Shown here piece after piece: positions 36,228 to 38,389 of a stretch of DNA of 64,000 nucleotides; position 1 is the stretch's first letter; every line of letters begins with the position of its first letter. The stretch spans positions 64,386 to 128,385 of the forward strand of contig CAVWAD010000007.1 of assembly GCA_963752955.1 (NCBI GenBank), read 5' to 3'. Made by a program: the position numbers and the translations under genes. The notes below the pieces were generated by a model. That model was not told the DNA's origin and did not search any database. It worked only from the letters and a program-made list of their open reading frames with translations. The stretch is from an uncultured archaeon. Its GTDB lineage: Archaea > Micrarchaeota > Micrarchaeia > Micrarchaeales > CABMGC01.

Positions 36228-38389
36228 ATGTCCAATGGCACAGAGCTCACGGTTAGTGACGCTCTCATAACCGATTCGGGCAGGGGCATACGCCAGGCTC
36301 GACTCGAAGTCGAGGAAGCTCCTGGACGTGAACTCCGGGGACATCATAGAGATCAAGGGCAAGAGCAAGTCCACCGCGGCGATAGTCTGGCCGGCGCACC
36401 CCAGCGACGAGGGGCTGGGATTCATAAGGATCGACGGCTACCTCAGGCAGAACATAGGCGTCGGCATAGGGGACAAGGTCTTGGTCCAGAAGGCCGAGGT
36501 CAAGGACGCCGAGAAGGTGACGATCGCCCCGCCCATGGGCCAGAGGCCGCCTCTGTCTCCGGAGTTCGCGAACTACGCGAAGGGGAGGCTGGAGAACAGG
36601 CCGATCTCAAGGGCGACTCGATGCCGATACCGATGTTCGGGCTGGTGTTCAACTTCATAGTCGTGCAGGTGACCCCGCACGGGATCGTCAGGATAACGAA
36701 GGACACGGCGCTCACGGTCAAGGAGGAGCCGGTCTCTGAGTCGGAGGTCAGGGTGGCCGACGTGCACTACGAGGACATCGGCGGGCTCAAGAGCGAGATA
36801 CAGAAGATAAGGGAGATGGTCGAGTACCCGATAAGGTACCCCGAGCTCTTCGAGAGGCTGGGCATAGAGCCGCCCAAGGGCGTGCTTCTCTTCGGGTCGC
36901 CGGGCACGGGCAAGACGCTGCTCGCGAAGGCGGTCGCCAACGAGAGCGACGCGCACTTCATCTCCATATCGGGCCCCGAGCTCGTCAGCAAGTTCGTGGG
37001 GGAGAGCGAGGAGAAGCTCAGGGGGATATTCAAGGAGGCGAACGAGAAGTCGCCGAGCATAATATTCATGGACGAGATCGACGCGATAGCGCCCAAGAGG
37101 GAGGAGGCGACGAACGAGGTCGAGAGGAGGATGGTCTCGCAGCTGCTCACGCTGATGGACGGCATGGCCGCGCAGGGGCCAGGTCATAGTGCTGGCCGCG
37201 ACGAACAGGCCCGATGCGGTCGACCCCGCGCTCCGCAGGCCGGGCAGGTTCGACAGGGAGATAGAGATAGGCATACCCGACAGGCCGTCAAGGAAGGAGA
37301 TACTCCAGATACACACCAGGAACATGCCGCTCGCCAAGGACGTGGACCTGGACGAGCTCGCCGCGATAACGCACGGCTACACGGGCGCGGACCTAAGCGC
37401 GCTCGTGAAGGAGGCGGCGATGGTCTCGCTGCAGCAACATATGGCCGAAGATAATAGACAAGAAGAGGATACCTGAGGAGATGCTGATCGAGCCTGACGG
37501 TCAACATGGACAACTTCATGGAGGCGCTGAAGAGCATAAGGCCCAGCGCGCTGAGGGAGGTCTTCGTGGAGAGGCCGAACGTCCACTGGAGCGACATCGG
37601 CGACATGGAGAAGGTCAAGGAGGAGATAAAGGAGGCGGTGGAGCTGCCGCTGAAGGAACCCGGAGCTGTTCGAGAGGATAGGCATAAGGCCGATAAAGGG
37701 CATACTGCTCGTGGGGCCGCCGGGCACGGGCAAGACGCTGCTCGCCAAGGCCGTCGCGACAGAGAGGGAGGCGAACTTCATCTCGATAAAGGGGCCGGAG
37801 GTGCTCAGCAAGTTCGTGGGGGAGAGCGAGAAGGCGGTGAGGGAGCTCTTCAGGAAGGCGAGGATGGCTTCGCCGTGCATAATATTCATAGACGAGATCG
37901 ACTCGATAGCGCAAGGCCAGGGGCGCCGGTTACTCGGACTCCGGCGTATCGGAGAGGGTCGTCGACACGCTGCTCACGGAGATGGACGGCCTGCAGGACA
38001 TGAAGAACGTCATAGTGCTCGCCGCGACGAACAGGCCCGAGGACATAGACCCCGCGCTGCTCAGGCCGGGCAGGTTCGACAAGATCATAGAGATACCGAT
38101 GCCGGACGACGTGACCAGGCTCGAGATATTCAAGGTGCACACGAAGCGCATGCCGCTCGACAAGGACGTCGACCTCGGGGAGCTTGCGAACTCAACGGAG
38201 AACTACACGGGCGCCGAGATAGAGAACATAGTCAGGGAGGCGGGCATGAACGCGATAAGGAACAAGAGGCAGATAGTCAGGAAGGACGACTTCGTGAAGG
38301 CGCTGCAGGAGATAAGGCCGGCCGTGCCGAAGGAGGTCGCCGAGAGGATAAGGCGCTTCAAGGAGGAGCCCGAGAGCATGTACAGGTAG
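36228..38389 (+). pseudogene. cdc48: Cdc48/VCP-like double-AAA+ ATPase interrupted by seven apparent frameshifts
   Basis: Pieces in three frames join into a full Cdc48: N domain ([27 protein letters not shown]), D1 ([17 protein letters not shown].., [37 protein letters not shown]) and D2 ([17 protein letters not shown].., [33 protein letters not shown]). Frame changes at about 36291, 36607, 37169, 37443, 37492, 37660 and 37912. Confidence 0.85.

Follow-up and report, generated by a model that had tools for sequence, protein, structure and literature searches.

Proteins of the CDC48/VAT family (TIGR01243), represented among studied archaeal proteins by Thermoplasma VAT, have an N-D1-D2 architecture. 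The cdc48 gene in the 64-kb stretch of DNA analyzed here (hereafter, the window) encodes a protein of this same architecture, with the difference that its ORF is broken seven times as written. Several frameshifts in a still recognizable gene are also what an ordinary bacterial or archaeal pseudogene presents. The window gene departs from such pseudogenes in having neither a random load of substitutions nor premature stops inside its coding segments, and in that its lesions are missing from populations with 99.9% identical flanks and coincide with alternative alleles.

Long-read assembly is a second described source of broken genes in the record. Related strains are collapsed into a single consensus by long-read assemblers (PMC8302730), and polishers output mixed haplotypes, with effects on coding sequence (PMC8092372). 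Like the defects in the window, such haplotype-mixing errors are limited to polymorphic stretches, leave a consensus that is a mosaic of two alleles, break coding sequence by small indels, and are accompanied by disagreement among independent assemblies. The tandem retention of both single-base alleles seen in the window is absent from these published accounts (PMC8092372, PMC8302730), and a literature search for single-base variants turned into tandem insertions yielded no more than general remarks on the mixing of haplotypes.

We judge the frameshifts of the window to be artifactual because independent assemblies lack them, because they coincide with alternative alleles, and because other genes are affected. 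With a probability that we put at roughly 0.86, the cdc48 frameshifts are consensus or polishing errors at mixed alleles and not mutations in the organism. The original prediction, made from the sequence alone, had left open whether they represent an artifact or a recent pseudogene; contigs without the extra bases, together with the allele match, favor the former.

The cdc48 reading frame and its product

The cdc48/VAT-type gene can be read as one protein only with seven frame changes, a claim of the original prediction that was borne out by the ORF list, by a codon-usage Viterbi scan, and by alignment to near-identical contigs. According to the ORF list and three-frame translation, eight frame segments cover the gene from its ATG at 36228 to the TAG stop at 38387–38389, and the coding segments between the shifts are, as had also been stated, free of stops. 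The unsupervised Viterbi scan covered the whole window with a codon model trained on the window's long ORFs alone, leaving homology unused, and found the same seven switches in cdc48, at 36289, 36606, 37174, 37433, 37493, 37656, and 37913; the positions of the lesions at base level (Table 1) were fixed by alignment to the near-identical contigs. All seven junctions named earlier were recovered, with one of them, placed at 37443, lying 10 nt away at 37433. The peptide that had been read across this junction, beginning LQQH(M/W), did not hold up, and the corrected translation gives a different stretch of 15 residues there.

Without its six extra bases and with the one missing base restored, cdc48 becomes an ORF of 2157 nt that encodes 718 amino acids. 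The corrected protein matches TIGR01243 ('CDC48 family AAA ATPase') with 1033.4 bits over residues 6–712, above the curated cut-off of 802.65. Its N-domain consists of CDC48_N (PF02359, residues 6–90) and CDC48_2 (PF02933, residues 110–171), that is, a double-psi-barrel and a beta-clam, and PF00004 (AAA) and PF17862 (AAA_lid_3) are each present twice. The catalytic motifs can all be read in the corrected translation, in agreement with the earlier claim that none was lost: the Walker A motifs are GSPGTGKT and GPPGTGKT, the Walker B motifs are IIFMDEID and IIFIDEID, and the second region of homology is intact in both AAA modules, with two motifs of 16 residues each legible in the translation. 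The D1 Walker A motif is GSPGTGKT and not GPPGTGKT, a variant common to the closest relatives of this protein. The C-terminus reads ...ESMYR, which we take to fit the C-terminal hydrophobic-Tyr-X motif of proteasome docking; the protein would act as an ATP-dependent unfoldase.

The best intact homologs of the corrected product are Micrarchaeota proteins with 93% identity, also 718 amino acids long, and by the names of its nearest database proteins the organism belongs to the Micrarchaeota (DPANN archaea). Exact-product look-ups of the C-terminal fragment ORF (37982–38389) and of aIF2-gamma found neither on record. Scans of genome and metagenome contigs gave no exact match to a window-specific 30-mer from within cdc48 or to a 35-mer spanning the cdc48/S6e junction. 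The uninterrupted reading frame of a TIGR01243-type gene is lacking in the window cdc48 and present in same-population contigs covering the sites. The real cdc48 gene is very probably intact and encodes an ordinary CDC48-family unfoldase, which would give the organism a normal Cdc48.

The neighborhood of the gene is conserved. The order M50 peptidase, Cdc48, S6e, and aIF2-gamma is kept in every fetched relative (L004–L011 and L021), and because the relatives keep this same gene order, the window cdc48 is an orthologous core gene and no stray copy. The S6e gene begins one base past the cdc48 stop with a TTG start, as the original prediction had noted, and three other assemblies encode an identical S6e protein.

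Table 1 Features of the window. Own, own-type allele; distant, allele of distant Micrarchaeota orthologs; window, bases as written in the window
Feature	Position	Strand	Context
Membrane-protein gene	18899..20084	+	Extra G at 19358 (GGC GTG to GGCG GTG)
DUF87/HerA-like ATPase gene	26729..28237	+	Extra bases at 27144 (CTG to CATG) and 27444 (ATA ACG to ATAC ACG)
M50-family peptidase gene	35415..36116	+	Upstream of cdc48; intact, one substitution versus relatives
cdc48/VAT-type gene	36228..38389	+	Sites listed below
Substitution-dense patch	36288..38315	.	Confined to cdc48 interior; fine mosaic of own-type and distant-lineage bases
Extra A	36288	+	Own TAC (Y; GGC TAC GCC), distant ATA (I; GGC ATA GCC), window GGC ATAC GCC; missing from L001/L012, L013, L014
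1-nt deficit	36606/36607	+	ATC GTC AAG (L021), ATC TCC AAG (L013), window ATC TC AAG
Extra A	37174	+	Own CGG/CGC (Arg), distant AGG/AGA (Arg), window CAGG; missing from L001, L002
Extra A	37433	+	Own CTG CGC AAC, distant CTG AGG AAC, window CTG CAGC AAC
Extra G	37490	+	Own ATC AGC (I S), L020/L021 ATG AGC (M S), window ATCG AGC
One extra base	37654/37655	+	Own AAG AAC (L001)/AGG AAC (L002), distant AAG GAC, window AAG GAAC
Extra G	37911	+	Own GCC AAG, alternative GCG (L021, L008), window GCGC AAG
Ribosomal protein S6e gene	38391..38816	+	TTG start
TrkA_N-domain gene	57351..58113	+	Extra C at 57554 (GGG GAG to GGGC GAG); missing from three independent contigs
T2SSE/FlaI-like ATPase gene	60130..61649	+	Extra A at 60610 (ATG to ATAG)

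Near-identical contigs and the alleles of cdc48

We retrieved comparison contigs from other samples via exact matches to the S6e and M50 proteins of the window. They comprise a 67-kb contig of ENA ERZ25039471 (loci L001, L012, L015, and L018) and short contigs of the Logan runs ERR10755942 (L002 and L013), ERR11523656 (L014), and ERR11596056 (L003); a literature search on these four sample accessions turned up no publication. Outside cdc48 the comparison contigs are ~99.9% identical to the window, and the six extra cdc48 bases are missing from all of them. Counting the whole window, all 11 insertions are missing from every overlapping contig (L001/L012/L015/L018, L002, L013, L014, L016, and L017). 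The first 197 codons of cdc48, with sites 1–2, lie in one ORF on L013, and the last 421 codons, with sites 3–7, on L002; together these two de Bruijn contigs from a single run pass all seven sites in frame.

Logan reference contigs are de Bruijn paths and could be inter-strain chimeras, but chimerism would not remove real indels. The ENA contig is visibly error-prone at L001/L012, and we gave it less weight on its own. The Logan contigs of all three runs start or stop inside cdc48 and differ from one another there, and these breaks suggest that the assembly graph branches there, with two or more alleles in those samples too.

In comparison with the DNA of orthologs, the inserted base was the alternative allele of the adjacent position at six of six cdc48 insertions. 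A random single-base insertion fits the alternative allele with a probability of 0.21, which for all six gives P ~1 × 10−4. At the deficit at 36606, the TC of the window is the part shared by the natural alleles GTC and TCC, and L001/L012 reads ATC GTCC AAG at this site, that is, both alleles joined, hence a frameshift of its own in that contig. In these alignments each cdc48 frameshift has two alleles set next to each other, the signature of a consensus drawn from a mixed two-allele pile-up.

The window and L001 share 12.4 kb in all. Inside cdc48 (2.16 kb) they differ by 63 substitutions and seven indels, the first difference at 36288 and the last at 38315, compared to eight substitutions and four homopolymer indels in the 10.3 kb outside the gene. 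The density of differences is thus ~2.9% within cdc48 and 0.08% in the flanks, a ~37-fold contrast. This hot spot, which emerges against near-identical strains and was invisible to the earlier reader, is the key to the explanation.

The bases that set the window apart are found in other Micrarchaeota. Among 55 window-specific substitutions, 47 (85%) are to a base that also occurs in one or more of three distant Micrarchaeota orthologs with 80–84% nucleotide identity, where 12% would be expected by chance. Neutral decay is ruled out because the substitutions are in this way borrowed from a homolog, and the earlier statement that the gene is unlike an old pseudogene stands: its substitutions match functional orthologs and not random decay. 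The protein differs from that of L001 at 25 amino acids, and 18 of these agree with the distant clade (for example in IVRKDDF and in other sequence of 31 residues), whereas the nearer clade (P0001–P0004, of which P0001 and P0004 were used at the DNA level) sides with L001. At 46 sites, the distant orthologs carry the window allele at 35–37, whereas L020 and L021, which provided the nearer-clade DNA, carry it at 16–20 and the own-type allele at 21–23. We rejected, on this distribution, a simple sister-allele model with ancestral bases retained by the window, the nearer L020/L021 being own-type at about half of the sites and the distant clade window-type. Over the 133 informative sites, the foreign bases fall into 19 separate patches, an interspersion that is near random, and the flipped share amounts to ~12–20% of the sites where the sampled distant orthologs differ.

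Nucleotide identity across Micrarchaeota lineages is 80–82% for cdc48, in gap-free alignment, and 65–76%, with gaps, for M50, S6e, and aIF2-gamma. With cdc48 more strongly conserved than any of its neighbors, foreign reads or alleles would intrude there and not in the flanks. Within the gene, a tendency of flipped sites to lie in locally conserved stretches appeared at ±15 nt only (P = 0.03), with nothing at ±30 or ±60 nt. We also considered whether short reads of the sampled distant lineages had cross-mapped, an idea that gained no specific support, the flipped sites being without consistent enrichment in conserved stretches.

Frameshifts in four other genes

The original prediction described neighboring genes as free of frameshifts. 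This is so for top6B, glnA, and aIF2-gamma, which are intact, but four other genes of the window carry five more frameshifts, at 19358, 27144, 27444, 57554, and 60610, as found by the Viterbi scan and contig alignment. Once each extra base was removed, full-length ORFs with the expected Pfam domains were restored in all four. Both insertions in the HerA-like gene fall in a substitution-dense patch at 26755–27855, in which three other frameshifts of this kind, among them GTC to GATC at 27637, break the ENA contig (L012), and the insertion at 60610 sits within a small substitution patch at 60516–61207. The TrkA_N-domain gene has no window-specific substitution near its indel, the differences at 57088 and 57859 each being private to one Logan contig. 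The codon contexts of these five insertions are compatible with the two-allele pattern.

Across the window, insertions and deletions stand at 11:1, and about 8 of the 11 insertions, as read by eye from their sequence contexts, do not duplicate the adjacent base. Natural indel spectra are slippage-driven and deletion-biased, and the window insertions are unlike them.

Origin of the frameshifts

We propose the following course of events. The source genome is probably a long-read metagenome assembly, as suggested by the exact-protein look-ups, which list one further carrier contig of 0.2–1 Mb. In this assembly the read pile-up over a small set of the best-conserved genes, chiefly cdc48, would have held a second, divergent allele. 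Its source may have been another strain living alongside, or a Micrarchaeota lineage of the same community whose reads align only in conserved genes. If the consensus step judged every variable site separately, it would have kept the own-type base at most sites and taken the foreign base at ~55; at six sites both alternative bases would have been retained in tandem, giving +1, and at one site neither unshared base, giving −1. Both bases would be kept where a substitution was modeled as an insertion plus a deletion. A consensus model that prefers indels to substitutions would yield tandem alleles.

One alternative is a real recent pseudogene, in a strain that truly has the seven cdc48 frameshifts and the five others, whether through early genome decay or with a paralog or the host supplying the function. 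The frameshifts are, after all, present in the sequence as given, and DPANN archaea have reduced genomes shaped by gene loss. An intact second copy of cdc48, which the original prediction had suggested looking for, was not found within the 64-kb window, which speaks against this reading; a copy may lie elsewhere in the genome. We consider a real pseudogene very unlikely: the frame is intact in near-identical populations from three or more other samples, the substitutions are non-random (the 47 of 55 noted above), the coding segments are free of in-frame stops, and every cdc48 insertion is an alternative allele. The excess of insertions over deletions, mostly not of the slippage type, is a further point against it. 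Natural decay is expected to produce far more substitutions than indels, and the TrkA_N-domain gene has its indel without a nearby window-specific substitution.

It is highly improbable that the window is instead correct as the record of a natural strain with a finely mosaic, recombinant cdc48, produced by homeologous recombination with distant Micrarchaeota and patchy mismatch repair with tandem retention of both bases, in which cdc48 and the four other genes are destroyed. The confinement of the own/distant mosaic to the most conserved gene would be in keeping with such an allele, and the contigs of several samples that break and differ inside cdc48 suggest real allelic diversity. However, at least 19 conversion patches in 2.1 kb would be needed from a donor only 80–84% identical, and mismatches in an in-register heteroduplex should give no insertions; we know of no mechanism by which they would. 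Insertions of both alleles also occur in the four unrelated genes and, elsewhere, in a second independent contig, which points to software. Were the mosaic real, a reduced DPANN genome would have lost its perhaps sole Cdc48, and the locus would represent either a result of homeologous recombination that has not been described as a mutation before or a host-supported life without Cdc48. A milder version may apply, in which the frameshifts are artifactual but the divergent patches are real, so that an otherwise clonal population would carry islands of inter-lineage recombination in its conserved ATPase genes.

Programmed recoding, by ribosomal frameshifting or RNA editing at seven sites, would agree with the intact motifs and stop-free coding segments but is excluded as vanishingly improbable because the orthologs share none of the shifts: all of them, including those of the populations with ~99.9% identical flanks, are in one continuous frame, none among the 120 homologs listed or the fetched loci needs a frame change at these sites, no common motif is visible by eye in the seven site contexts, and six +1 shifts and one −1 shift in a single gene would be unprecedented.

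If the frameshifts are consensus errors, as we favor, annotation of the window record would wrongly list cdc48 and at least four other genes as pseudogenes. This could depress estimates of completeness and could feed wrong inferences of 'gene loss in DPANN'. A non-slippage +1 insertion that equals the alternative allele, within a substitution-dense patch of a very conserved gene, could serve as a flag for such artifacts. As for the patches, they are a hint that conserved ATPase genes of Micrarchaeota may have genuine allelic diversity or undergo exchange between lineages.

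Probable allelic variation of cdc48 in other samples

De Bruijn contigs from three separate sequencing runs all start or stop within cdc48, the Cdc48/VAT AAA+ ATPase gene that carries seven frameshifts in the window, and these breaks suggest graph branching, as would arise if those samples, too, held two or more alleles of the gene. One of these Logan contigs (L013, run ERR10755942) is a single in-frame codon, TCT, shorter than the window in the linker between the N and D1 domains of Cdc48, where the peptides read ...PVSESE... in the window against ...PVESE... in L013. This difference appears to be a true length polymorphism of the population that preserves the frame.

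Positions in the window of the features considered here
Feature	Window position	Strand	Detail
Membrane-protein gene	18899-20084		extra base at 19358
DUF87/HerA-like P-loop ATPase gene	26729-28237	+	extra A at 27144, extra C at 27444
Patch divergent from ENA contig	26755-27855		1.1 kb
DnaJ/B12-binding ORF	31114-33954	-	coding frame runs to 34053
Homopolymer-length differences	33519; 34121		L012 8104; L012 8707
Candidate Cobalamin riboswitch aptamer	34369-34501	-	
Logan contig L014 (run ERR11523656)	36299		end within cdc48
Codon absent from L013	36735-36737		TCT
Logan contig L013 (run ERR10755942)	36823		end within cdc48
Logan contig L002 (run ERR10755942)	37119		start within cdc48
Logan contig L003 (run ERR11596056)	37934		start within cdc48
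aIF2-gamma dinucleotide	39039-39040		AC in window
Errors of ENA ERZ25039471 contig_10304 (L001/L012)	39355-39719; 40455; 41334		window equivalents
Topoisomerase VI subunit B ORF	42994-46770	+	contains intein
TrkA_N-domain gene	57351-58113		extra base at 57554
T2SSE/FlaI-like ATPase gene	60130-61649		extra base at 60610

Other frameshifted genes and errors in the comparison contig

Frameshifts also break four genes other than cdc48. In the membrane-protein, TrkA_N-domain and T2SSE/FlaI-like genes the cause is a single extra base, which alignment found in none of the near-identical contigs from other samples, and deleting these bases restored the full ORFs. The two frameshifts of the HerA-like gene both fall within a patch where the window and the ENA contig, nearly identical elsewhere, diverge by ~5%; the contig has three frameshifts of its own there, different from the two in the window.

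The ENA contig (loci L001 and L012) is itself error-prone and unfit as the sole truth. It has four private substitutions in aIF2-gamma, every one to A, one of which seemingly creates a TAG at the base where the gene call stops, and several insertions in its homopolymers fragment the genes nearby. Also in aIF2-gamma, a dinucleotide reads AC in the window only and GT in L001, L002 and L003, giving Thr rather than Val; this double change stands isolated in a gene that is identical elsewhere, and it may represent a further small allele intrusion.

Intein and candidate riboswitch

The topoisomerase VI subunit B gene contains an intein, its ORF is unbroken in the window, and the protein encoded by its counterpart on the ENA contig matches the Pfam domains Intein_splicing and HATPase_c.

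A candidate cobalamin riboswitch aptamer, matched by Rfam barely over the gathering threshold (33.5 against 31.5 bits; local E = 1.8e-6), has a discernible conserved core. A cobalamin riboswitch would be unusual in an archaeon, above all in a DPANN genome. Downstream of the candidate lies a large ORF with a DnaJ domain; its match to a B12-binding domain is weak and falls below the cut-off. Inside this ORF or shortly upstream of it, the window and the ENA contig differ in homopolymer length at two positions. By codon usage, the coding frame continues past the ORF's first start codon (33954); the true 5' end of the gene, and therefore its spacing from the riboswitch match, is uncertain.
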